Positions 1 through 37,473 of a stretch of 40,243 nucleotides of DNA are shown one piece after another. The position numbers were made by a program, and so were the translations under genes. Source of the stretch: a virus; IMG/VR virus record IMGVR_UViG_3300028968_000002; one strand, given 5' to 3'. Below the pieces are notes generated by a model. The model saw only the letters and a list, made by a program, of their open reading frames with translations, did no database searches and was not told the DNA's origin. Within the stretch, counting starts at the first letter, position 1, and each line of letters starts with the position of its first letter.

Positions 1-99
1 GGAGACGGTTCGGGAAGAGACGAAGCAAATAAGGCGGATAGTCTTCAGACTGTATTAAGAACCTTAAAATCAGATGGATGTATGTTTTTTAATGCAATA
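1..99. repeat. Terminal overlap: bases 1..99 are identical to 40145..40243, so the contig is circularly closed or terminally redundant
   Basis: Direct base-by-base comparison of both ends gives an exact 99-nt match. The reading frame of the ORF at the window end continues into position 1. Confidence 0.97.
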
Positions 100-3000
100 T
101 ATATTAACTTAGAAGAAGGGGTAAGAGTTAGAGAGAAAATCGTATTGCAAGATTTCTACGGGACATTACTTCAAATAAATTTAGGTAAAGATGCTTTATT
201 GCAAGTAAAAGAAGGCAGTGTTATAGAGGATACTAGATGTAGAATTTATATAACTTCTTCAGAATACAACGGAACGGACACACTAGATTCTTACAATGAA
301 TCCGGTAAATTAAATACATTAGGATGTGTGGAAATTAAAGATGTAGCAGGTTTTAAACTTAGCCATAACAGCCATGCTAGATTTGATGGACTTCGTATAA
401 GAGGAAATTCGCTTGATTCTGTAGGTTTTAGATGTGCAGATAGTAATCTATTAGAGGTTACAAACTGCGATGTAAGTAATATGGATAAAATAGCTGACGG
501 ATATAATTCTTCAAAAATACTTCTAGCTAATTGTCAAGGCAATGTAAACAAACTTGCTACGCTTGCGAGTGGAAGTATTTTTAGTTCATCACCTCAAGTG
601 CCCTCTTATGCAGAGAATGAGCCATGTGAAGTATATGGTTCATCTGCTGTTATTAACTCCTTTGAAACGTTTGTTAAGAAAGATTCTAAATTCGAAGATA
701 CTTTTAGCAACGATGATAATACAAATACTTTAGCAATATTTGGAGTTAGCCAACAATATACAAACTACGAGGGCGAAGGAATAAACGCAGAAACAAGTAT
801 GCTTAATCTTGTAGGACAGGGACGCTTTAAAGAAGATTATAAATATATGCACGGGTACGCAGTATTTATAAGTGATACAGATGATTCCATGGAGGAATAT
901 CTAAAGACTTTGGGCAGTTATAATATGTACTTAAGAATGACGAGAGCTGATAATAATACTACTGCTCCAATACCAAGAGTTAGATTCCAACTTGGAAATG
1001 GAGAATATACAGCATATTATAAGTTAGATCCATTAACAAGCCCACTAACTGGAGATGGAAGTGGAGCGCAAATTATAGATTATAATGCTACAGAAGATAG
1101 AAAATTACCGAAGGACCTTACAGACAAGATTGCAACTTACGGAGTTTACAGTGTGGAATTTCTATCAGACGAATTTGAGGACTATTTAGTAGTAGATGAT
1201 ATAAAATTGGTAGTTGTAGGAACGGCTAAAGGAGAAGAAAGCGGAGACATTGGAACAGATGTAAAAGCAATAGGTAGAATATTAGCTAATGCTCTTAATG
1301 TGCGTAAAACTCCGGGGATAGACGGAGAATATGCTGGATTACTTGTAAATGGGGATACAGTAGAAATTGTAGGAGTGGATGCAGATACAGGTTGGTATAA
1401 AATAAAATTTGAAGATGGCTATGCTTATATAACAAATAAATCCGAATATGTAGAAATAATCTCAGGAGACCCTAACGGAACTACAACAATACAAAAAGTA
1501 GAAGTCTTGGCCGATAACTTAAACGTAAGAAGTGGACCAGGAACAGAAAATAGTTCTATAGGCATAGTGCAAAAAGGATTTGTTGCCGACATATTAGAAA
1601 CAGATAGTACTACAGGTTGGTACAAAATAAGCTACAACGGTGAATATGGTTGGGTGACTAATAACACAACTTATGTAAAAGTAACTACTGGAACGGCTAC
1701 AGTAAGTCCAGAACTTTACGATGGAGCAAAAGTTGCAGGATTTGCAGAATCTTACTATAATGCAAGAAATAATTATACCTCAGCTAAGAGTTGGGATAAT
1801 GGATTTACTTACGGAGATTCTACACCATGTAATACTAGTGCAAGTGGTACTATGGGAGCTACAAATAGTATATGGGAGAAATCTAGCCAGGGAAACTATT
1901 GGAAAATGATAGATGAATCCACTTTAATATTGTTATGTTTAATGGGGTATGACTATGATGCATCTCCATATGCAAGCCTTGTACAGTACAATAATTACAG
2001 AACAAATATTTTAGCAAAGAATAGTTCTTATACAGGAGCAATAGTCCCATTAATTGGTTCTAGTCTAGCTCGAACTTGTGCAGAAATAGCACAATACTTC
2101 TACAATAAGGGACAAACCTTTGAAGTAAAGAGCGATTATAGTAACTTACAAAAAGGGGACTTATTATTTTATGCTAGAAAAACAAGTAGTGGAGCATATG
2201 TCTATCCAACTAGATGGAAATATATTAGCACAGGAGCAATTTGCATAGGTCAAGATAGTAGTGGAAATGCACAAATAATTACAGCTATGAGTAATCCTGG
2301 AGAGAAACACACAGATGGCTGGTATACGGGACTAAAAAAAGACCTTGTGAAGAATCAACAACCTTCTACTATTGTATTAGCGGTTCGTCCAAGCACTAAG
2401 GTTACAAGTAGTGGTTCTTCTAGTGGAGGAATTACTGTATCGAATATGCGTCAAACAATATGTGATACAGCAATGAAAATAGTCAATATGGGTACTAATC
2501 ATACAGCATGGTATTCCCAATATTGGAGAACAACTTCTCTTAGTAGTATGGTAACCATTAAGGGAAAAGTTGAGACAGTAGGAGGAACAACATATTATCA
2601 ACCTAGCTGGGTCCAAACAGGGGTGACATACGGATTTGATTGTAGCTCTTTGGTTGGCTGTTGCTATGAAAAGGCTGGAATGAGCTATATGAAAGGATTA
2701 ACTTGTTCTATGGGAACATTGCAATCTACTGCAAAAGCACATGGGGCAACATTCTGGAGATATGCTGATTCAGGCTTTACAAGGGCAAAAGCTGGAGATA
2801 TAATCATGTTTGCAAATACTGGATATACCGTAACCACATCTAATATGGCAACAGTAAGAACTCATCATACGGCAATATATATGGGTAACGGTTATATTGC
2901 AGAGGCAAGCGGTTATAAGAAAGGAATAATTTATAGCAAATATAACTTAAATAAACAAGCATTTTTTATAAGACTTCCAGAGTTAGACAGGGCAGATAGT

Positions 3001-3603
3001 GCTAGTTCTAGCGGAGGAACAGTAGTAAAAGAGGAATACAAAAATTGTTTCAATGAAAAAGGAACAATTGATGGACACAACTATGTGTATAGATTACATG
3101 ATGCAAGATGCACTTGTTACAGTGCAAGTGAAAGTAACAGTTCGGGAAGAAGTGGCTTAGGTACGCATATGGGAAAAACAGTTGCGTCGCAAAATATTCC
3201 ATATGGTACAAAAATATATATTCCAGCACTAAAAGGTCAAACATGGACTAATGCTAATGGAACAAAAGTAACTCTAGATGGTGTATTTACGGTCACAGAT
3301 AGTGGTATAGCTTGTTTTGACTTCGATATTGTAGCAGGAAGTACAAGCAGTGCTTGTTATAGCAACTATTCAAATCCTTCAAGGATGGAAGTATATGTAT
3401 TAGAATGGGGAACAAGTACAATACAAAATTATAGCTTTTCTGATACGTACAGAATTGCCTATAACAATGGTGTACTATCTAGATACAAATCAGCATTTAA
3501 AAATTATATTAGCAACGGTGGCGTACTTATAAATTTGCTTAAATTCTATAATGATGATGCAAATATAAGAAGTAGTACATATTGGAGCATATTAAATAGC
3601 TAG
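1..3603 (+). CDS. Tail-associated lysin (Tal), C-terminal part. It continues the ORF that starts at 38246 across the circular junction, giving about 1833 aa in total
   Basis: Frame 1 is open from base 1 and is in the same frame as 38246 after subtracting 40144. There are two SH3b-like repeats (LNVRKTPG...GWYKI about 1290-1440; LNVRSGPG...GWYKI about 1510-1640). An NlpC/P60-like Cys-His module is present (GFDCSSLVGCCYEKAG...HHTAIYMGNGYIAEAS, about 2630-2910), preceded by a second P60-like segment (about 1960-2300). A C-terminal 3D/RlpA-like segment follows (CTCYSASE...GKTVASQNIPYGTKIYIP...FTVTDSG, about 3110-3310). Confidence 0.85.
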   Translation, partial: GDGSGRDEANKADSLQTVLRTLKSDGCMFFNAIYINLEEGVRVREKIVLQDFYGTLLQINLGKDALLQVKEGSVIEDTRCRIYITSSEYNGTDTLDSYNESGKLNTLGCVEIKDVAGFKLSHNSHARFDGLRIRGNSLDSVGFRCADSNLLEVTNCDVSNMDKIADGYNSSKILLANCQGNVNKLATLASGSIFSSSPQVPSYAENEPCEVYGSSAVINSFETFVKKDSKFEDTFSNDDNTNTLAIFGVSQQYTNYEGEGINAETSMLNLVGQGRFKEDYKYMHGYAVFISDTDDSMEEYLKTLGSYNMYLRMTRADNNTTAPIPRVRFQLGNGEYTAYYKLDPLTSPLTGDGSGAQIIDYNATEDRKLPKDLTDKIATYGVYSVEFLSDEFEDYLVVDDIKLVVVGTAKGEESGDIGTDVKAIGRILANALNVRKTPGIDGEYAGLLVNGDTVEIVGVDADTGWYKIKFEDGYAYITNKSEYVEIISGDPNGTTTIQKVEVLADNLNVRSGPGTENSSIGIVQKGFVADILETDSTTGWYKISYNGEYGWVTNNTTYVKVTTGTATVSPELYDGAKVAGFAESYYNARNNYTSAKSWDNGFTYGDSTPCNTSASGTMGATNSIWEKSSQGNYWKMIDESTLILLCLMGYDYDASPYASLVQYNNYRTNILAKNSSYTGAIVPLIGSSLARTCAEIAQYFYNKGQTFEVKSDYSNLQKGDLLFYARKTSSGAYVYPTRWKYISTGAICIGQDSSGNAQIITAMSNPGEKHTDGWYTGLKKDLVKNQQPSTIVLAVRPSTKVTSSGSSSGGITVSNMRQTICDTAMKIVNMGTNHTAWYSQYWRTTSLSSMVTIKGKVETVGGTTYYQPSWVQTGVTYGFDCSSLVGCCYEKAGMSYMKGLTCSMGTLQSTAKAHGATFWRYADSGFTRAKAGDIIMFANTGYTVTTSNMATVRTHHTAIYMGNGYIAEASGYKKGIIYSKYNLNKQAFFIRLPELDRADSASSSGGTVVKEEYKNCFNEKGTIDGHNYVYRLHDARCTCYSASESNSSGRSGLGTHMGKTVASQNIPYGTKIYIPALKGQTWTNANGTKVTLDGVFTVTDSGIACFDFDIVAGSTSSACYSNYSNPSRMEVYVLEWGTSTIQNYSFSDTYRIAYNNGVLSRYKSAFKNYISNGGVLINLLKFYNDDANIRSSTYWSILNS

Positions 3604-3614
3604 GAGGTGGCAAC

Positions 3615-5600
3615 ATGAGAGATTATGATATAGAGAGTGATCTAAAGCAAGAGAAATTTCAATCTCTTAAATTAGTGCAGGGAGATAGAGGAAATAAAAT
3701 TAAAATAAATGTGTATGAAGATGGGCAACCAGTTAATTTGGCTGGTTGCTCTGTTACTGCAAAATATAAAAGAGCAGATGGAGAAATAATAAACGATGGT
3801 GTAATAGAAAATATACATGATAATTCCTTCGATGCAGTTATGGATAGTTCTATAACAAAGGTAGCAGGAACGCTAAAAATGTTATTCACTATAGAAAAAG
3901 ATGCTGTTAAAGTTAGTGCATTTTTGCTGTTAGCAGATGTAAGAGAAGGTATAGGAGAAAGTAGTTCTTCAGGTGGAAGCGCAGGAGGTGGAGAAGTGAC
4001 AGTAGATCTTAGTGATTATTATAAAAAAATTGAAACTTACTCAAGAAAAGAGATTGATGCACAATTTAAAGATATTGTGAATAAAACTATTACAACTGAA
4101 GAACGAAGTAAATTATCTAGTTTAGAAAACTACGATGATACTAGTGTTAAAAATGATATACAAACACAGAAAGCCAGAATAGATACTTTCACTTCACTTA
4201 AAGAAGGAAGTACTACTGGAGATGCAGAATTAATTGACGCTAGAATAGGGGTTAACGGAACAAATTATTCTAATTTAGGGGATTCAATAAGAAGTCAATT
4301 GGACTATATAGTTGATATATCGCCAAATTTATATGAATTTAATGATAATGGATTATATACCGAGAGTGGTATAACAAATGCAAATACAAAATATTGGCAC
4401 TCCAAACCTATAGCTTGTAAAATAGGAGATGTATTTCGCATATCTAAAAGAGTAAGCTGGCAAAGTTCTTGGATAGGAGTACTAGATAAAAACGGAAATA
4501 AGATAGACACCCTATCAGATGGAAATCTTACACCTTGGTTACAAAAAGGCGATGATAGTGTAAATTATGATACTATAACTATTTCAGAATTTAATTATAA
4601 TGGAGCTATTGTAAACAAAGATAATATAGGATTTTTAATTATATCATTTTCAGCATACGACAGTGTAACCGATTCAAGTAAAAATATAATTGTTAAAAAT
4701 TGCGATTTCCCTGAACAGTTTATAGAAAAAGGTTCAACTTTACAGTCATGTGTGAAATTTAATGAGATTCATAAAAAATCAATACAAAATATAAGTGATG
4801 AGCAGATTAGAGAATTTAATAAGCCAATCAAAAAGGCTTTAGTACTTTTAAATTTTGATGCGTTTAATTTTGATGATAAAAGATTTGAAATATTGCAAGA
4901 ATATGGATTTAAAGCTACTGTTACTTTTGGGACACAAACAACTCCAGTTTATAATGAAGAAAAGGCTAATAAATATAAAAAAGTAATGAGTAATGGTTGG
5001 GATATAGGTATTTATTCAGCTACAAACTGGGTTAAAGATAAGTACGGAAATGAAGCCTTCACATCTACAAGTGATGAGGTAGAAAAGGCATGGGAAGATT
5101 ATGTTAAACTTGCCCTAGAAGATGCAGAATTAAATGGAGTTTATTATCCTCAAACATGGTTTTGTAGACAAAATGCTTACTGTGATGCACTTGGGAAATC
5201 TTTAAGAAAATATGGGTTTAAAATGTGTAGAGGTGAACATTTCGTTGATTATAAAAAAACACCTACGTATTTTAACAATGATTATAGTTTTGTAACTCGA
5301 ACTAAGGGTTTATATCCTTCAACTGTTGAAGGATGTTTATGGGAAATAGACCAATGTGTAAATGATACCAAAGGGATTTCTATATTTTCGCATGGAATTT
5401 ATGCTACAGATGAAGAAGCAGAAAGCAATTTCGGTTGTACTGAAACTAATTTAAGGACAGTTTTAGATAGAATTAAAAAATATGTAGACGAAGGAAAATT
5501 AGAAGTGTTAACGTATAATGAATTATATAATAGATATAATTTAAATGATTCAATCAATATTAATTATAATAGAATATTGAAAATGCTAACCAATAATTAG
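3615..5600 (+). CDS. Tail fibre / receptor-binding protein with a BppU-like N-terminal domain, a Gly/Ser linker and a NodB (polysaccharide deacetylase)-like C-terminal domain
   Basis: A GGAGG RBS precedes the start. The N-terminus (KLVQGDRGNKIKINVYEDGQPVNLAG) resembles the baseplate upper protein Ig-like domain. The C-terminus (LNFDAF...RQNAY...IFSHGIY...VLTYNELY) resembles the NodB fold but lacks the canonical D-D and H-x-x-x-H metal ligands. Confidence 0.7.
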   Translation: MRDYDIESDLKQEKFQSLKLVQGDRGNKIKINVYEDGQPVNLAGCSVTAKYKRADGEIINDGVIENIHDNSFDAVMDSSITKVAGTLKMLFTIEKDAVKVSAFLLLADVREGIGESSSSGGSAGGGEVTVDLSDYYKKIETYSRKEIDAQFKDIVNKTITTEERSKLSSLENYDDTSVKNDIQTQKARIDTFTSLKEGSTTGDAELIDARIGVNGTNYSNLGDSIRSQLDYIVDISPNLYEFNDNGLYTESGITNANTKYWHSKPIACKIGDVFRISKRVSWQSSWIGVLDKNGNKIDTLSDGNLTPWLQKGDDSVNYDTITISEFNYNGAIVNKDNIGFLIISFSAYDSVTDSSKNIIVKNCDFPEQFIEKGSTLQSCVKFNEIHKKSIQNISDEQIREFNKPIKKALVLLNFDAFNFDDKRFEILQEYGFKATVTFGTQTTPVYNEEKANKYKKVMSNGWDIGIYSATNWVKDKYGNEAFTSTSDEVEKAWEDYVKLALEDAELNGVYYPQTWFCRQNAYCDALGKSLRKYGFKMCRGEHFVDYKKTPTYFNNDYSFVTRTKGLYPSTVEGCLWEIDQCVNDTKGISIFSHGIYATDEEAESNFGCTETNLRTVLDRIKKYVDEGKLEVLTYNELYNRYNLNDSININYNRILKMLTNN

Positions 5601-9335: not shown

Positions 9336-10844
9336 TTATATTTTAAATTTAACCTCCAAAGTAAACTGTGCAAATCTCTTTTTTTCTTTATAATATAAAA
9401 TTTCCTTTATAACAGTTTTTAAAGCCTTGTTTTTCAGCTCTATGTTATCTGTATTTTCGTAACTTTCTATAGCACACTCTATATTTTGTGCTAATTCTTT
9501 ATAATCAATGTCCTTGCTAATTTCTACCTCTAATAACTTTTTAGTACCCTTTATAGCTATTTCTATTTCTTCTTTCTTATTTGCCAAAGTCTGTTGTCTT
9601 TCTAAAAAAGTATCTACATCATATATACCTCTTTCTAGTAAGTCGTGCAATCTGTCTTTTTGCTTATCTAGTTCTGTTTTTTCTTTATCTAAAGTAGTTA
9701 AAGTATTTTGTAACATCTCTAATTGCTTATTTTCTCTATCTTCTATTTCTGTATTATCTAATTCATCTTTAATCTCTTTTAATTTTATTTTTAGGATGTT
9801 TATGATTTCTTCTTCTATTAGATCTAACCTAGAAGAACCTACCTCATAACATTGTTTGCAGCGCAAATAAAGTACAGGACCTTCTTTACCTGTATTGTAA
9901 GATGCTACCATTGTATGTCTGCAATTAGAACATTTTACTATACCTGCAAGTGGATTAATTAGTTTTCTATCACTTTTCTTAGCGGGTATTTGATTATTTA
10001 TTCTTATTTCCTGAGCTTTTTCCCAGTCATCTTCCGATATAATAGGTTTGTGCTTTCCTTTACATACTATCATATCATTTCCTTTGTTTTTTCTTGTTTT
10101 AGTTCCTTTTCTCTTATATTCAAACCAAGTCACATATCCACAATAAGTTCTATTTCTTATAATCCTTCTAACCGCACATTCTGTAAAACATTTACCAGCA
10201 GTTGTTTTATATCCTAAAGCATTTAGATGATTCATTATTTTATAAGCACCTTCACCGTTTAAATACATGTCAAATATAAGTTTTATTGCTGGAGCAGTTT
10301 CTTCATCTATAATCATATGTCTTTTACCATATTCATCATATTTAAATTTATATCCTAAAGGGGCTGTTGAGCCTATGAAATTACCTTCTTCTATAGATTT
10401 AACTCTACCACGTTGCATACGTTTAGTTATTACTTTTAATTCCCTGCGTGCAAAGAATGTTTTAAATTCTGTCATTTCTTCGTCTAGGTCATTATTCAAG
10501 TCATAAGTTTTATCGGGGGTAATAATTAATGTTTTACTTTCCTTAAATGTATTAATTATTTTTCCCTGGTCCTGCATATCTCCACGCCCTAGACGGTCTA
10601 TATCCATGCATAATACGGCATCATACATATTCTCTTTAACTTCTTCTAATAGTTGCGTCATTTTAGGTCTTTTTGCAATGCTATCCCCACTAACTATTTC
10701 TTCTTTTATCTCTACAACATTAAGGTCCTGCTTTTTAGCAACTTCTAATAATGTACTTCTATGCCTAGCAAGTGTATCAATATCTTCTTTTTTCTCCAGT
10801 TCTTCATCAGCCCTAGATTTTCTAAGGTATATACATGTTTTCAT
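9336..10844 (-). CDS. int: Large serine recombinase (integrase)
   Basis: The N-terminal resolvase-type catalytic motif is CIYLRKSRADEE (Y-x-R-x-SR-x-D, as in clostridial TnpX/TndX-type enzymes). There is a recombinase domain, a Cys-rich Zn ribbon (CSNCRH...CKQC) and a long C-terminal coiled coil. An AGGAGG RBS is present. Confidence 0.92.
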   Translation of the reverse strand: MKTCIYLRKSRADEELEKKEDIDTLARHRSTLLEVAKKQDLNVVEIKEEIVSGDSIAKRPKMTQLLEEVKENMYDAVLCMDIDRLGRGDMQDQGKIINTFKESKTLIITPDKTYDLNNDLDEEMTEFKTFFARRELKVITKRMQRGRVKSIEEGNFIGSTAPLGYKFKYDEYGKRHMIIDEETAPAIKLIFDMYLNGEGAYKIMNHLNALGYKTTAGKCFTECAVRRIIRNRTYCGYVTWFEYKRKGTKTRKNKGNDMIVCKGKHKPIISEDDWEKAQEIRINNQIPAKKSDRKLINPLAGIVKCSNCRHTMVASYNTGKEGPVLYLRCKQCYEVGSSRLDLIEEEIINILKIKLKEIKDELDNTEIEDRENKQLEMLQNTLTTLDKEKTELDKQKDRLHDLLERGIYDVDTFLERQQTLANKKEEIEIAIKGTKKLLEVEISKDIDYKELAQNIECAIESYENTDNIELKNKALKTVIKEILYYKEKKRFAQFTLEVKFKI

Positions 10845-32383: not shown

Positions 32384-32934
32384 TGGCAACAGAGGTAACA
32401 CTTAACCAACATGCACTTTCAGATGTGGCATGTGTAGAAATAGTTACAGAAGATGAAAAAAGTTATACGTTTGTAACTGCTTCCGAAGTCGGTATAGAAG
32501 AAGTGCTTGACGAAGGAGATGAACAAACTTTAAAAATAAAAAATGTATTATACGCAAATAGAAAGGCAGAAGATACATTATTAGGACATAATTTGACTTT
32601 TACAGACAATCTTATGTGTCCTGAGTTATTAGAATTATTCCAAGGAGGAACATTAACACCAGGAGAAAATGGCAATTTTACATATACACCTCCAGCAATA
32701 GGGACAAAAGTAACTAAAAAGAAATTTACATGTAATATATATACTTGTGAAGTTTCTACGGATGGAGACACTGGTAAATATATAAAAGCATCTTATCCAA
32801 GCTGCGAAGGAACTAGCGTTCCGTTTACTTTTAAAGACGGAGAATATTATACAAATGAATATACTGTAAAATCTAGACCAGCTAAAAATGTACAACCGTA
32901 TACAGTTTCTTTAGTAGATGCATTACCAAAATAA
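32383..32934 (+). CDS. Major tail protein
   Basis: It is 183 aa, has a TAATG overlap with the upstream gene, and lies immediately before the chaperone pair and the tape measure gene. Confidence 0.7.
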   Translation: MATEVTLNQHALSDVACVEIVTEDEKSYTFVTASEVGIEEVLDEGDEQTLKIKNVLYANRKAEDTLLGHNLTFTDNLMCPELLELFQGGTLTPGENGNFTYTPPAIGTKVTKKKFTCNIYTCEVSTDGDTGKYIKASYPSCEGTSVPFTFKDGEYYTNEYTVKSRPAKNVQPYTVSLVDALPK

Positions 32935-32987
32935 AATAGAATAAATAGATTTTAGCCTTCCTAATTGATTTTAGGGGGGCTTTTATT

Positions 32988-33452
32988 ATGAAAGGAATAA
33001 ATATGGAAAATTTACAAGTAACAAGCTTAGAACAATTAAAGAAAGTAAAAAGAACAGAAATTATAGAGTTAGGCAAATTCGAGGACGGGACAACATTTGT
33101 AGCAGAGCTAAAAAGACCTAATATGATGAATTTAATAACTCATAAAAAAATACCTAATGCACTTCTAACAGAAGCTACGCAACTATTTAACGGGAAAAAT
33201 AAATTAGCTAATAAAGTAGTAGCAGAAGATGATGGAGAATCTTTAGCGCAATTAGGGGAATTGATAGAAGTATTAGCAGAAGCATGTTTAGTTAACCCCA
33301 CTTATAAACAACTAAAAGATTTAGATTTAGATTTAACATTAGAAATGCAAATGTCAATAATGATGTATTCGCAAGGAGGGGTAGAAGCTCTAAAAAACTT
33401 TCGTAAAGAGCAACAACGTAATGCGAATAATAAACCAAGCATTGAAGTTTAA
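32988..33452 (+). CDS. Tail assembly chaperone (G-like)
   Basis: It is an acidic 154-aa protein located between the major tail and tape measure genes. Confidence 0.7.
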   Translation: MKGINMENLQVTSLEQLKKVKRTEIIELGKFEDGTTFVAELKRPNMMNLITHKKIPNALLTEATQLFNGKNKLANKVVAEDDGESLAQLGELIEVLAEACLVNPTYKQLKDLDLDLTLEMQMSIMMYSQGGVEALKNFRKEQQRNANNKPSIEV

Positions 33453-33648
33453 TAGACTACCTTCTGAAATATTACGAATAAATGATGAATATACAGCATT
33501 TTGTTTTGATGAAGCCTGTTTATATATAATCAACCAAATTGAAAATAAGAAAAAACCACATTTTAAAGATGAAAAAGTAGATAACGATAAAGATAAATAT
33601 TATTTAAATGACTTCCTTAGAAAACAAGCGATGAAAGGAGGTAAGTAA
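33394..33648 (+). CDS. Tail assembly chaperone extension (T-like), probably expressed by frameshifting from the G frame
   Basis: The +1 frame is open from 33394. The track ATG at 33421 has no RBS. The overlap contains an A6 run (33392-33397). The ORF ends in GGAGGTAAGTAAATG, which feeds the tape measure start. Confidence 0.55.
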   Translation, partial: KTFVKSNNVMRIINQALKFNRLPSEILRINDEYTAFCFDEACLYIINQIENKKKPHFKDEKVDNDKDKYYLNDFLRKQAMKGGK

Positions 33649-34021
33649 ATGAGTGTAAATTTAGGCACAGCAGTTGGATATTTAGAACTTAACTCGGACC
33701 GTTGGGTTAGCAGTTATAATACCGCTAGGCAACAAATGCAGACCTTAGCAGATAGTTCACAAAGTATGAGTAGTAGATTTCAAGCTGCAGGTCAAATGCT
33801 AACAAGAGCTGGAACAACTCTGACAACTTGTGTAACTGTTCCGTTAGCTGGAATAGGTGCGGCAAGTGTAAAAACTGCTGCTGATTTTGAATCTTCTATG
33901 TCGAATGTGCAAGCTTTGTCCGGCGCGACAGGTAGTGAATTAGAGCAGTTATCTAATCTAGCTAAAGAGATGGGAGCAAACACACAGTTTAGTGCAAGTG
34001 AAGCAGCTGATGCATTAGGCT
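33649..34021 (+). CDS. Tape measure protein, exon 1 (124 codons plus the first base of a Tyr codon)
   Basis: The sequence is ...AADFESSMSNVQALSGATGSELEQLSNLAKEMGANTQFSASEAADALG, which is the start of a TP901-type TMP core. The frame then hits TAA at 34021-34023. Confidence 0.8.
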
Positions 34022-34387
34022 AAAAAGGGACTTTATTATGTTAATACACTTAGTAATAAAGTTGTGGCGTCTATAGTGAATGCTTACAAGTAGACTATAG
34101 ATTATAAGAGGGCAAAATCGGTAGATAGTGTAGTGTCTAAATACCGAGATAACTTATATGATTAACAGCAATAAGTATTGTAACGAGTTGGGAATGAACC
34201 TATTTAGTTGAGATACTTAATAGAATATAAATTCCCCATGAGTGTCCTCCATCGGTAAGCTCTATATTATGAAAAATTAATATAGATGGTGAAAGTGTAC
34301 TCTAGACTAGGCTTGAAATGACAAGCCGATGAAAATGAGGGAAACCTCTAGAGATTGAGATAAAAAACTCAATGTTAATAACATTCG
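34022..34387 (+). ncRNA. Candidate ORF-less group I intron (366 nt) interrupting the tape measure gene
   Basis: Excision joins T34021 to AC34388-34389, making TAC, and gives ...EAADALG-Y-MALAGWDTQQ.... The 5' exon ends in U and the insert ends in G. Helices found by hand are 34030-38/34054-62, 34082-87/34255-60, 34261-69/34278-86, 34135-39/34303-07, 34310-15/34322-27 and 34354-59/34368-73. An IGS-like UGUGGC lies at 34063-68. Confidence 0.6.
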
Positions 34388-37300
34388 ACATGGCATTAGC
34401 TGGATGGGATACACAACAATCCATGAATGCACTTCCAGGGGTACTTAACCTTGCTGCAGCATCAGGAATGGGGCTAGCAGAAGCATCAGATTTGGTTACA
34501 GATTATTTAAGTGCATTTGGAGAAGAAGCAGATCAAGCTGGAAGAATGGCTGATGTATTATCTTACGCACAGGCTAATTCCAATACGACAACAGCTGGAT
34601 TAGGAGAAGCATTTAAGAATTGTGCTGCAAATGCCAATGCATTCGGATTGGATATAGAACAAACAACTGCTTTAATCGGCAAATTATCAGACCAGGGGCT
34701 AAAAGGCTCAGAAGCAGGGACGGCGTTAAGTGCAGTATTCAGAGATATTACACAGAAAATGAAGGACGGGAATATAACTATAGGAAAAACAAAGATTGCA
34801 GTGCAAGATGCAAATGGTAACTATAGAAGCATGACTGATATATTACGAGATGTTGAAAATGCAACAGATGGAATGGGAGATGCGCAAAAGAATGCAGCGT
34901 TAATGAGTACCTTTACATCTGATTCGCTAAAAGCACTAAACATACTTTTACAAACTGGTAGTGGAAACATAGAAGATTTTGAAAAAGAATTAAGAAATAG
35001 TTCTGGAACAGCAGAAGAAATGGCTAATATTATGAATGACAATCTTAACGGGCAAATAACTGCATTAAAATCCGCTTTAGAGGGTGCAGCTATAGCTATA
35101 GGAGAAGCATTGTTACCAATGATAAAAGGTTTAGTAAGTGTATTACAAGGCGCTCTTAATTGGTTTAATGGATTAAATGATGGAGTTAAAACAACAATAG
35201 TAACAGTTGGATTAGTAGTCGCAGCTATAGGTCCATTATTATTAATTTTAGGCTCTCTAGCAAGTGCGATAGGAAACTTAATAGAACTAAAAGCTTTGTT
35301 GGCTGAATCCAGTATATTAAGTAGTGCAATAGGTAGAGTATCAGGACTGTTTACTAGTTTAAGGAATGTAATTATGGGGTCGGTAGTACCAGCAATACAA
35401 TCATTATGGGCATTTATGCTAGCAAATCCAATCACCTTTGTAATAGCAGCAATAGCAGCGTTAGTTGCTGGATTTGTATACCTTTGGAATAACTGTGAAT
35501 CTTTCCGTAATTTTTGGATTAACCTTTGGGATAATATAGTTTCTACGGTTAGTAAAATACCAGGTCAAGTTCAAAAGATTTTTAATGAACTTCCAGGGAA
35601 AATAAGTGGAGCTTTGGACTCAACTGGTGACGCATTGATAAATTGGGGTTACAGTATAAGCGGTGGAGTAGGAGATACCATGACAGATTTATATGGTGTC
35701 TTTAGAGATTCTTTTGATGGAATGGTAGAATATATTAAGAATATCACAACAATTGTAAAAGATATATTTACAGGCAACTGGGGAGCTATACCCGGAGATG
35801 TAGAAAAATTATTTACAGGTATGTGCAACAGTGTAGGTAATATTTTATCTGGATTAGCTAACATTGTAGGAGATGCTTTTGCAATGGTTAACGATGCTAT
35901 CCAAGCAGTGTTAGGAAAAATTTGGGGAGGAGTTATAGATTGGGCTAGCAATATTAATTCCGGTTTAGGGCAAGCCTTCTTGAATGCATATTATACCATT
36001 TCAGACACTTTTGATGGAATAATGACAGTAATTCGAGATGTTACTACAATAATTTCAGATATATTCCGAGGGGACTGGAGTAGTGCGGTTAATCACTTAA
36101 AAACATTATGGAATGATTTATTATTTTATGCAAAAATGATTTTTGGAGATATTGTAGAGTCAATTAAAGGGTTTATAGTTGGAGCAAAAGATTTTGTGGT
36201 TGATGGAGTTTCTAACATAGGCAAATCAATATCTAATTGGGCAAGCGATACTTATAATACAATATCTAACTGGGCAAGTAACACAATATCTGCCGTAGGG
36301 CAATGGTTTAATGAACTCCCTAGTAAGATAGGTTACGCTCTAGGGTTTGCACTTGGAGTAATTGCAGGATGGGTTGTAAATACATGGAATTATTTTGCTA
36401 CAAATATTCCTTTATGGATAAATTCAATTGGCCAATGGTTTAGCGAACTCCCTAGTAAGATAGAGCAATGGCTAACAACTACCTACAACAATATAGTAAC
36501 CTGGGGAACAAATATGTATAATAAAGCAAAAGAAACAGGTACCAATTTTGTTAACGGAATTATACAATTTTTTAAAGAATTACCTACTAAAGTACAAACA
36601 TGGTTTGATAATACATATAACAATACTGTTAAATGGGGATCTAATGTAGTGTCTAAAGGTAAAGAAACAGGTACCAATTTTGTTAATAGCATAGTTGATT
36701 TTGTAAAAACATTACCGACAGTTGTGCTAAATTGGTTAACGCAAACTTATAACAAAGTAGTTAGTTGGGCGACACAAATGGGGAATAAAGCTAGAGAAAC
36801 TGGAAGTACTTTTGTTTCTAAAGTAGGCAGTACAATACAAAGTTTGCCTGGCCAAGTATGGAGTTATTTAAGCCAAACCATAAGTAAAGCATCAACTTTT
36901 GTAAGTCAGTTCGGGCAAAAGGCTACACAAGCAGCAAGAAACTTTACTACTAATATAGTTAATGGAGTTAGAAATATACCAAATCAAATGCTTAGCATAG
37001 GAAGGAATATAGTGCAAGGCATATGGCGTGGAATTAGTGGAGCAGCAGGATGGTTAAGGAGTCAAATAAGTAATTTTGCTAGTGGAATTATTAAAGGATT
37101 TAAGTCAGCATTTAAGATAAACTCACCTTCTAAAATTATGCGTGATGTAATAGGGAAAGGCATAGTAGAAGGTATAGGTGTTGGTATAGACCAAAAAGAA
37201 GGTGACTTATTAACACAAGCAAATAAATTGGCAGGTAGTGTAGTTGATGTTATGAGTGGTAATATTGCAACAGCTAACTTATTTGATACTGCTAAAAATC

Positions 37301-37473
37301 TAACTACAAGCATGAATATAGCTACTAACCAAGCAACTGGACAAGATAAAGTAAGTAAATTTGATAGCTTGTTGCATGTAGAAAACTTAACAATAAACGA
37401 TGATAAAGATATAGAAACTTTAGCAAGTGATTTAGCATTCTATTTAAAAAGAAAAAACGTATTAACAGTATAA
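34388..37473 (+). CDS. Tape measure protein, exon 2
   Basis: The sequence (Y)MALAGWDTQQSMNALPGVLNLAAASGMGLAEASDLVTDYLSAFG continues the TMP core. It is followed by TM-like segments and long W/F-periodic repeats (NxxxW...N). Neither the track ATG at 34372 nor the ATG at 34390 has an RBS. Confidence 0.85.

Follow-up and report, generated by a model that had tools for sequence, protein, structure and literature searches.

A probable ORF-less group I intron in a prophage tape-measure gene and the phage intron lineage around it

Introduction

Is the break in the tape-measure protein (TMP) gene of the virus record IMGVR_UViG_3300028968_000002 the mark of an intron and, if so, of which kind? The 40,243 nucleotides (nt) of DNA that we analyzed, here called the window, hold a temperate siphovirus-type prophage with a serine integrase, a DnaB-like helicase, TerL, a portal protein, a major head protein, a tail tube protein, a chaperone, the TMP and Dit, and the names of the TMP homologues point to Peptostreptococcaceae or Clostridia. 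A 366-nt insert without an open reading frame (ORF), at positions 34022-34387, interrupts the TMP gene; this observation of a split gene is confirmed here. An earlier note on this DNA had read the insert as a group I intron excised at exactly these positions. We conclude that 34022-34387 is very probably a genuine ORF-less group I intron, IA-like in architecture and with exact boundaries, as judged by comparative analysis of its sequence and predicted structure. The main point of interest is that the widespread phage lineage to which this putative intron belongs is missed by RF00028 (Intron_gpI), the standard Rfam model.

Results

Removal of 366 nucleotides restores the tape-measure gene

As called, the TMP gene consists of two ORFs. 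The 5' ORF (33649..34023) encodes 124 amino acids (aa) and ends in ...EAADALG* at the stop codon TAA 34021-23, and the 3' ORF (34372..37473, 1033 aa from ATG 34372) contains ...MALAGWD.... In the insert, 16 stops interrupt the TMP frame and 12-15 interrupt each forward frame, and no ORF of at least 40 aa lies wholly inside it. When T34021 is joined to A34388, an open TMP frame of 1152 aa results that reads ...ALG-Y-MALAGW... across the junction. On this spliced protein the domain PF10145 (PhageMin_Tail) matches in one stretch, covering profile positions 2-200 of 201 with 171 bits, and on the 3' ORF by itself the match begins only at profile position 24.

TMP homologues give the same answer. 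The junction is spanned by 109 of the 120 homologues, none of which has a gap there; 101 of them carry Y as the junction residue, 5 carry F and 3 carry N. The earlier note had described a TMP frame that stops inside a conserved domain, an insert with stops and no ORF, and a continuous EAADALG-Y-MALAGWD after exact removal of 34022..34387. The ORF calls, the domain broken in the 3' ORF, the 1152-aa frame and the uninterrupted homologues bear out each of these statements. The spliced TMP would contain the junction-spanning peptide ...EAADALGYMALAGWDTQQSMNALPGVLNLAAASGMGLAEASDLVTDYLSAFGEEADQAGR, a tryptic fragment that begins with the Lys at residue 106 of the protein and runs to the first Arg past the junction.

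Neither ATG 34372 nor ATG 34390 has a Shine-Dalgarno core, and the flanking genes at 33649 and 37486 do have AGGAGG. On this point the earlier note was right about the two internal start codons and overstated its contrast with the other genes, almost all of which it had credited with GGAGG; that motif is present at 10 of the 32 mechanically called starts of the window. The insert has a folding energy of -89.4 kcal/mol (z = -4.96 against shuffles). Exon 1 ends in U34021 and the insert in G34387, as had also been read from the sequence.

An intron-less allele fixes the boundaries

An allele that lacks the insert is found in contig L006, from the Logan assembly of ERR8218381, which encodes homologue P0001, a protein 100% identical to the spliced TMP across the junction. 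The contig follows window 32544-34022 at 99.9% identity and then continues directly with 34388-35275 at 99.6%. Exactly 366 nt are absent relative to the window, whether the ERR8218381 library is DNA or RNA; none of the papers searched mentions that accession. Thus both features expected of a group I intron in its host gene are present: precise excision restores the gene, and an intron-less sequence exists. A34022 and A34388 are the same base, which leaves the boundary ambiguous by 1 nt. This ambiguity is resolved by covariation of the helix P9.0 (see below), which assigns the terminal G to 34387. Apart from this single base, the comparison with the empty site showed no target-site duplication.

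The intron-bearing allele is common in metagenome assemblies, with its exact exon-1 product in 72 blocks of the collection whose contigs are labelled as such. Contig L006 differs from the window at 34017 by a synonymous change of TTA to TTG, 5 nt upstream of the insertion site. It also has a 1-nt deletion at window 34812, either an assembly error or real, that truncates its TMP call to 272 aa.

The insert has a covarying group I core

Because RF00028 does not match the insert (see below), its class had to be established from structure. Alignment A2 comprises 16 family members, window included, from P3 to the 3' exon. In it, helices that change in a compensatory manner alternate with invariant single-stranded blocks, namely AAAA, UCGGU...ACCGA, GUAAC, CCAnGAG and GAAAAU. 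Standard pairs fill 95.8% of the cells, compared with 34-45% in controls whose 3' partners had been slid by 1-3 columns. Both sides have changed in 38 of 56 pairs (10-14 in the slid controls), and the covariation score is 0.587 (0.06-0.13 in the slid controls). None of 500 shuffles matched the observed value on any of these measures.

Covariation is seen at 5 of 6 pairs in P3 and at 3 of 5 in P7. Since both helices covary, the P3/P7 pseudoknot is supported. Within the family, P7 occurs as GCAUA/UAUGC, GCGUA/UACGC, GCACA/UGUGC and GAGU/ACUC, and its pair G34185-C34302, the candidate guanosine-binding pair next to the invariant J6/7, is the same in 16 of 16 members. RNAalifold independently recovers every nested helix. 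Applied to orthologues at the TMP site, the full model of 103 pairs reaches 97.8% pairing, where slid controls reach about 40%, and 21 of its pairs have changed on both sides. That orthologues of about 81% identity keep so many of their pairs, with this number of double-sided changes, argues for selection on the fold.

The order of the structural elements corresponds one-to-one to the consensus structure line of RF00028, and the core follows the canonical succession P3, J3/4, P4-P5-P6, J6/7, P7, P3 3' strand, P8, J8/7, P7 3' strand. As judged from this model, the architecture resembles class IA in that an additional helix separates P7 from the 3' strand of P3. At the 3' end, the two bases that follow the 3' strand of P7 covary with the two before the last G, as GA/UC, GG/CC, UA/UA, AA/UU and AG/CU. 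This P9.0 is 81% paired in alignment A2, where indels in the tail blur the alignment. The terminal omega-G is therefore preceded by P9.0, and a P10 with the 3' exon is also present. All elements are listed in Table 1.

Several helices of the earlier note find another place in this model. Its P3 (34082-87/34255-60) and P7 (34135-39/34303-07) are not borne out, as the covarying P3 and P7 lie elsewhere (Table 1). The proposed P7 was rejected because its positions belong to P5 and J5/4 on one side and to J7/9 and P9.0 on the other, which covary. Its P8 (34261-69/34278-86) stands as a helix and is the distal part of P8 (P8a). Of the two hairpins in 34148-34236 that it took for P7.1 and P7.2, the first is P6/P6a, and the second is indeed a P7.1-type helix. 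The helices 34310-15/34322-27 and 34354-59/34368-73 are supported, as P9a and P9.1. Finally, a competing pairing of 34245-55 with 34326-41, raised as a caveat, is rejected, since these positions lie in the P3 3' strand and P8 and in P9a/P9b, which are the covarying pairings.

Table 1. Coordinates of the split TMP gene and of the predicted elements of the intron in the window.
Feature	Position	Strand	Remarks
TMP exon 1	33649..34021	+	124 codons and first base of the Tyr junction codon; ends in U34021
Group I intron (probable)	34022..34387	+	366 nt, ORF-less, ends in omega-G 34387; absent from contig L006
TMP exon 2	34388..37473	+	starts with AC (completes the Tyr codon), then MALAGWD...
P1	34019..34068	+	G34019-C34020-U34021 / G34066-G34067-C34068; U.G at splice site
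P1-loop hairpin	34030-38/34054-62	+	9 bp, inside P1 loop
P10 half of guide	34063..34065 (UGU)	+	pairs A34388-C34389-A34390; contiguous with P1 half
P2	34069-77/34094-102	+	16-nt loop with GCUUAC 34082-87; 4 of 9 pairs changed on both sides among orthologues
Tertiary loop-loop contact (putative)	L2 GCUUAC 34082-87 / 6-nt P8 bulge GUAAGC 34255-60	+	P3 of the earlier note
P3	34108-13/34244-49	+	5 of 6 pairs changed on both sides; RNAalifold
J3/4	AAAA	+	inside P3
P4	34118-22/34143-47	+	inside P3
P5	34126-28/34137-39	+	inside P3
P6	34148-50/34177-79	+	inside P3
P6a	34152-57/34171-76	+	inside P3
J6/7	GUAAC 34180-84	+	invariant in the family
P7	34185-88/34299-302	+	pseudoknotted with P3
P7.1	34190-95/34231-36, nested hairpin 34200-04/34219-23	+	IA-type extra helix between P7 and P3 3' strand
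P8	34250-54/34287-91	+	alignment A2, orthologue pair counts, RNAalifold
P8a (distal P8)	34261-69/34278-86	+	alignment A2, orthologue pair counts, RNAalifold
J8/7	AAAGUGU 34292-98	+	AAAAUAU in most family members
P9.0	G34305-A34306 / U34385-C34386	+	directly before omega-G; encloses P9, P9a, P9b, P9.1
P9	34307-09/34349-51	+	pair counts
P9a	34310-15/34322-27	+	pair counts
26-nt lineage signature GATGAAAATGAGGGAAACCTCTAGAG	34328..34353	+	at least 120 IMG/VR contigs; exact in window
P9b	GAGG-GAAA-CCUC 34337-48	+	GAAA-capped arm
P9.1	34354-59/34368-73	+	pair counts
omega-G	34387	+	fixed by P9.0

Predicted splice-site recognition follows one rule at six insertion sites

In family members with nearby exons, the layout runs from the 5' splice site through a short loop to the guide, P2, J2/3 and P3. 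We checked the guide rule at six insertion sites: the one in TMP, two at the Walker-A motif of TerL, one of the helicase type (GTG/KTW) and two others. At all six, the 5' exon ends in U, which pairs with a G of the guide, and the guide lies directly 5' of P2. Likewise, at all six the bases just 5' of the guide G are complementary to those with which the 3' exon begins (P10), and the predicted spliced frame is open through a conserved motif. The P1 (GCU/GGC with a U.G wobble), P10 (ACA/UGU) and guide (UGUGGC 34063-68) that the earlier note had found by hand are thus borne out by a rule that holds at six sites. As in group I introns generally, a U.G wobble of P1 marks the 5' splice site, although P1 is just 3 base pairs (bp) long in the window copy.

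The 9-bp hairpin proposed within the P1 loop is also supported, and it is all that this loop holds in the window copy, which has no ORF or homing endonuclease gene. In relatives, the P1 loop contains a double-motif LAGLIDADG homing endonuclease gene (PF14528, PF00961), and other relatives have an insert of 0.75-1 kilobases (kb) in P8.

The P2 loop and P8 probably form a tertiary contact

The complementarity that the earlier note had called P3 joins the loop of P2 to a bulge of P8. In the clade of the window, GCUUAC in the P2 loop faces GUAAGC in P8, and 166 of 2000 shuffles are at least as good. In other members the same two loops hold different complementary sequences: UACGGUA and UACCGUA in L228 (4 of 500 shuffles at least as good), GACUGCA and UGCAGUC in L237 (1 of 500), and AGCUAU and AUAGCU in L150 (2 of 500). 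In the other nine members, a GAAA tetraloop caps P2 and P8 is receptor-like, of the CCUAAAC...GUAGG type. This alternation suggests a tertiary P2-P8 contact with two interchangeable forms. Taken by itself, the window shows a weak match, and the case for a contact there rests on the series. The family may therefore be seen as a natural series in which one tertiary contact is made by tetraloop and receptor or by kissing loops of varied sequence.

The insert belongs to a widespread lineage of phage introns

In blastn searches of deposited phages, the 3' third of the insert matches unannotated gaps in split genes, and the match ends right at the 3' gene piece. These relatives lie in the topoisomerase II gene of AR9/PBS1, which is annotated as a 3-piece join, in that of phiR1-37, whose pieces g327 and g329 stand around endonuclease g328, in the major tail protein gene of a Staphylococcus phage and in TerL of a C. 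perfringens phage. Large Clostridioides phages match the insert in its middle part. The window carries the core blocks that the lineage shares (AAAA-UCGGU...ACCGA, GUAAC, CCAnGAG, GAAAAU) together with its 26-nt P9 signature. An nhmmer profile of the family gives 115-123 bits on AR9 and phiR1-37; its 180.6 bits on the window are not independent, since the window is among the 16 sequences from which the profile was built. On these sequence comparisons, the putative intron of the window is a member of the AR9/phiR1-37-type lineage, which counts at least 120 viral contigs.

Closer relatives occupy the same TMP site. Loci L225/L277, L146/L128, L215 and L278 each have a copy that is about 81% identical, with the same boundaries. 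Between phages, the intron is 81-82% identical where the flanking TMP exons reach 53-78%, which speaks for constraint on the intron. A megablast search of the TMP region against phages returned no match, and a scan of bacterial genomes for a 17-nt P2-loop motif gave 33 loci, all of them chance matches.

The lineage extends over jumbo phages, crAss-like phages and phages of Clostridium, Bacillus and Staphylococcus. Its traits are an atypical P7, a single P7.1, a three-way-junction P9 with the invariant 26-nt signature, and a LAGLIDADG gene in the P1 loop. To these is added the P2 loop-P8 contact, which switches between the GAAA/receptor-like form and kissing loops of 6-7 bp in at least four sequences. 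A tentative reading of these traits, to which we would not yet commit ourselves, is that the lineage, widespread in phages with at least 120 IMG/VR contigs, may form a subclass of group I introns that is distinct in structure and uncurated. If true, surveys based on RF00028 miss the lineage, and the intron content of phages, structural genes included, is underestimated.

The searches also turned up likely members in deposited genomes. Caldibacillus phage CBP1 (MF595878) has an unannotated one at L281 2347-2604, with 112 bits in nhmmer and compensated P3 and P9; its TMP is annotated as separate coding sequences (CDSs), and the family intron sits in the first gap, at a TMP site other than that of the window. 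Separate CDSs around an ORF are deposited for the major tail protein of vB-SscS-F1 (L003, ~1370-2571) and for TerL of vB_CpeS-1181 (L004, ~1431-2600), and topoisomerase II of phiR1-37 (L002, ~1321-2646) is likewise given as two CDSs around an ORF. As the 3' module of the family ends exactly at the 3' piece in L002, L003 and L004, these are probably unannotated introns. Clostridioides phage LIBA6276, like phiCD211 and relatives, has an ORF-less element (L005 2486-2807) with the same P3-P8 core and without the 26-nt signature; it is flanked by an 'ATPase' CDS and a large hypothetical CDS and is probably another unannotated intron. Finally, the 167-nt family consensus, which runs from J6/7 to the 3' end, matches an unannotated stretch of the uncultured crAss-like phage cr6_1 (NC_055894 54391-54556) with 79.5% identity over 98% of its length.

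An identical tract surrounds the intron in contigs with the same exon 1

Among metagenome contigs with the same exon 1, the intron shows 0 differences over 366 nt in seven of eight. Over the 3 kb of genes upstream of the TMP gene, the divergence of these contigs from the window amounts to 5-13% of positions. In six contigs that were mapped, the nearest upstream difference lies 0.4-1.1 kb from the 5' splice site in five, and the nearest downstream difference 0.5-0.9 kb past the 3' splice site in four, with one having none. The result is an identical tract of 1.3-2 kb around the intron (window ~33200-35250 against L282-L289). We did not use this tract as evidence for homing, because the contigs had been selected for an identical exon 1, which is a bias; co-conversion and ordinary modular recombination fit it equally well. 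In the sixth mapped contig, L285 (Logan ERR14033025), the intron is identical to the window up to ~34161, resembles that of L146 from 34162 onward and is followed by a very different TMP exon 2. This mosaic points to a recombination crossover inside the intron near 34162.

At the left end of the window, two large ORFs (82-3603, 1173 aa; 3615-5600, 661 aa) have no functional PHROG match. Both are upstream of the serine integrase (9336-10844, minus strand).

Discussion

A probable intron despite a silent covariance model

A number of observations weigh against a group I intron at this site. RF00028 returned nothing on 33900-34500 (601 nt) at E <= 10, and it found none of about 20 relatives (the deposited-phage loci and 15 further family loci) at E <= 1. 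The family profile in turn gave no nhmmer match to Twort or T4 td at E <= 10. P1 and P10, of 3 bp each, do not vary among the orthologues, and for the window copy they therefore rest on analogy with the other sites. The library behind the intron-less contig may be of DNA or of RNA. In the papers searched, no experiment on any lineage member was found, and the AR9 papers among them give no splicing data for the AR9 introns.

The silence of RF00028 can be judged by its controls. Namely, the model finds three Twort orf142 introns with 101, 97 and 64 bits and the T4 td intron with 40 bits (E = 7e-8). The tool therefore sees classical IA2 phage introns, and it is the insert that diverges from the curated consensus. 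Rfam 15, like all our Rfam searches run with hidden Markov model pre-filters on, also gave no group I match on the window at the gathering score; the few other matches in the Rfam searches of the window, of the 601 nt and of the relatives (SNORD45, rsmX, HOTAIR_2) were judged to be chance. The earlier note had counted the lack of a group I model match as refutation. That lack is what we found, yet the criterion is too strict for this lineage, and at this locus a group I intron was not ruled out by a negative Rfam search for group I. Group II introns have six domains, including domain V, and are usually longer than 600 nt; Rfam gave no group II match in the window, and the element measures 366 nt and has a group I fold.

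Could the insert be a decayed remnant that no longer splices? The TMP would then be made as two polypeptides, of 124 aa and of about 1030 aa from ATG 34372 or ATG 34390, or the prophage would be tail-defective. The missing endonuclease gene, the short P1 and P10, the lack of an RF00028 match and the lack of RNA evidence all suit such a remnant. However, the internal ATGs have no Shine-Dalgarno core, and the break falls inside PhageMin_Tail, a domain that is continuous in every one of the 109 spanning homologues. A decayed element would also not be expected to have orthologues of about 81% identity that remain 97.8% paired with 21 pairs changed on both sides, or to be as common in metagenomes as the intron-bearing allele in its 72 blocks. 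We consider decay improbable. Less probable still is a structured mobile element, such as an undescribed class of ribozyme or intron, that merely resembles a group I intron and is removed by other chemistry or with the help of the host. In its favor, the entire lineage escapes RF00028, which does find the controls, and a sequence-level link to Twort or td was not found. Against it stand the P3/P7 pseudoknot, P4-P6, P8, the A-rich J3/4 and J8/7, all in canonical order and covarying, along with a P9.0 before the terminal G, a U.G P1 and a P10. In addition, RF00028 and GISSD models can miss phage variants (PMC11878797).

The precise presence/absence polymorphism seen with the intron-less contig would also fit a plain DNA insertion, such as a miniature inverted-repeat transposable element or an insertion-sequence-like element, or a gene read by translational bypassing or stop-codon readthrough, all without RNA splicing. 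We give this explanation next to no credence. No target-site duplication exceeds the single ambiguous base and no terminal inverted repeats were seen, the insert ends AAAAAGGG... and ...AACATTCG not being inverted repeats of each other. Readthrough would have to cross 16 in-frame stops, with 12-15 in every forward frame. The bypass in T4 gene 60 spans 50 nt, a length far exceeded by 366 nt, and matching take-off and landing codons are absent. An intron excised at exactly 34022..34387, the core claim of the earlier note, is the reading that the intron-less allele, the conservation of the junction and the covariation support.

We infer the splicing and catalysis of 34022-34387, as well as its mode of spread, and propose the following course. 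In the late transcript, the guide 5'-UGU/GGC-3' (34063-68), just 5' of P2, would pair with exon-1 GCU, so that the 5' splice site would lie at the U34021.G34066 wobble. The attack after U34021 would come from an external guanosine held by P7. P9.0 (GA 34305-06 / UC 34385-86) would then put G34387 into the same site, and P10 (UGU with ACA 34388-90) would align exon 2. Ligation would create the Tyr codon U/AC and with it the 1152-aa TMP. The fold may be stabilized by the contact of the P2 loop with the P8 bulge and by the GAAA-capped P9b. As the window copy has no homing endonuclease gene, its spread was probably passive, through recombination, or helped in trans.

The value of the finding lies in a correction of the annotation, in the lesson of a negative Rfam search and in the series of P2-P8 contacts. 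In the annotation, ORFs 33649..34023 and 34372..37473 should become one TMP gene, and the same joining applies to several deposited phages that list split terminase, tail and TMP genes as separate CDSs. A lineage that escapes RF00028 while IA2 controls match is a concrete case of a gap flagged in a 2025 study, according to which phage variants may elude RF00028 and the GISSD models and the current subgroups do not cover all of the group I diversity in phages (PMC11878797). For the lineage, a covariance model could be built with alignment A2 as its seed.

Comparison with known introns

The earlier note had regarded a TMP gene as an unusual location, which is not borne out: according to Tourasse & Kolsto (2008, PMC2504315), group I introns occur at three positions within the tape-measure genes that B. 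cereus-group prophages carry. This location is thus not new, and the known range of phage intron sites is unchanged. In that work, TMP-IVS1/2 are assigned to class IA2 and TMP-IVS3a/b to class IA1 (PMC2504315). Like the window copy, these group I introns interrupt the tape-measure gene of a temperate phage, and some of them lack a complete endonuclease gene; they lie in conserved parts of the gene with guide sequences adapted to each site. They differ in their hosts and TMP genes (PMC2504315).

The nearest known relatives by RNA lineage are the AR9/PBS1 topoisomerase II introns (g044) and those at phiR1-37 g327/g328/g329, which have the 26-nt P9 signature. They share with the window copy the module of P7 3' strand, P9 and P9.1 that ends at the 3' exon, and RF00028 misses them too. 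In contrast to the window copy, which lies in a tail gene, they occupy DNA-metabolism genes of jumbo phages, and the phiR1-37 copy carries a LAGLIDADG-like ORF whereas the window copy is ORF-less.

The Twort orf142 and T4 td introns are the classical IA2 phage introns, with proven self-splicing. Their elements follow the same order, that of the RF00028 structure line, and Twort orf142 is also a tail gene. Single-stranded segments are similar as well: J6/7 reads GUAAC-G in the window and GCAAC-G and CUAAC-G in Twort/td, J8/7 reads AAAAUAU in the window family and GAUAU in Twort/td, and the 3' tail is GUAACAUAAUUG in Twort and GUUAAUAACAUUCG in the window. However, homology at the sequence level is undetectable in either direction. 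P7 is GCAUA/UAUGC or GAGU/ACUC in the lineage and GACUA/UAGUC in Twort/td, and the lineage has one P7.1 helix in place of P7.1 plus P7.2, and its P9 forms a three-way junction in which one arm is invariant and capped by GAAA. Where the lineage has an endonuclease ORF, this lies in the P1 loop, whereas T4 td carries I-TevI inside the intron in the P6 loop.

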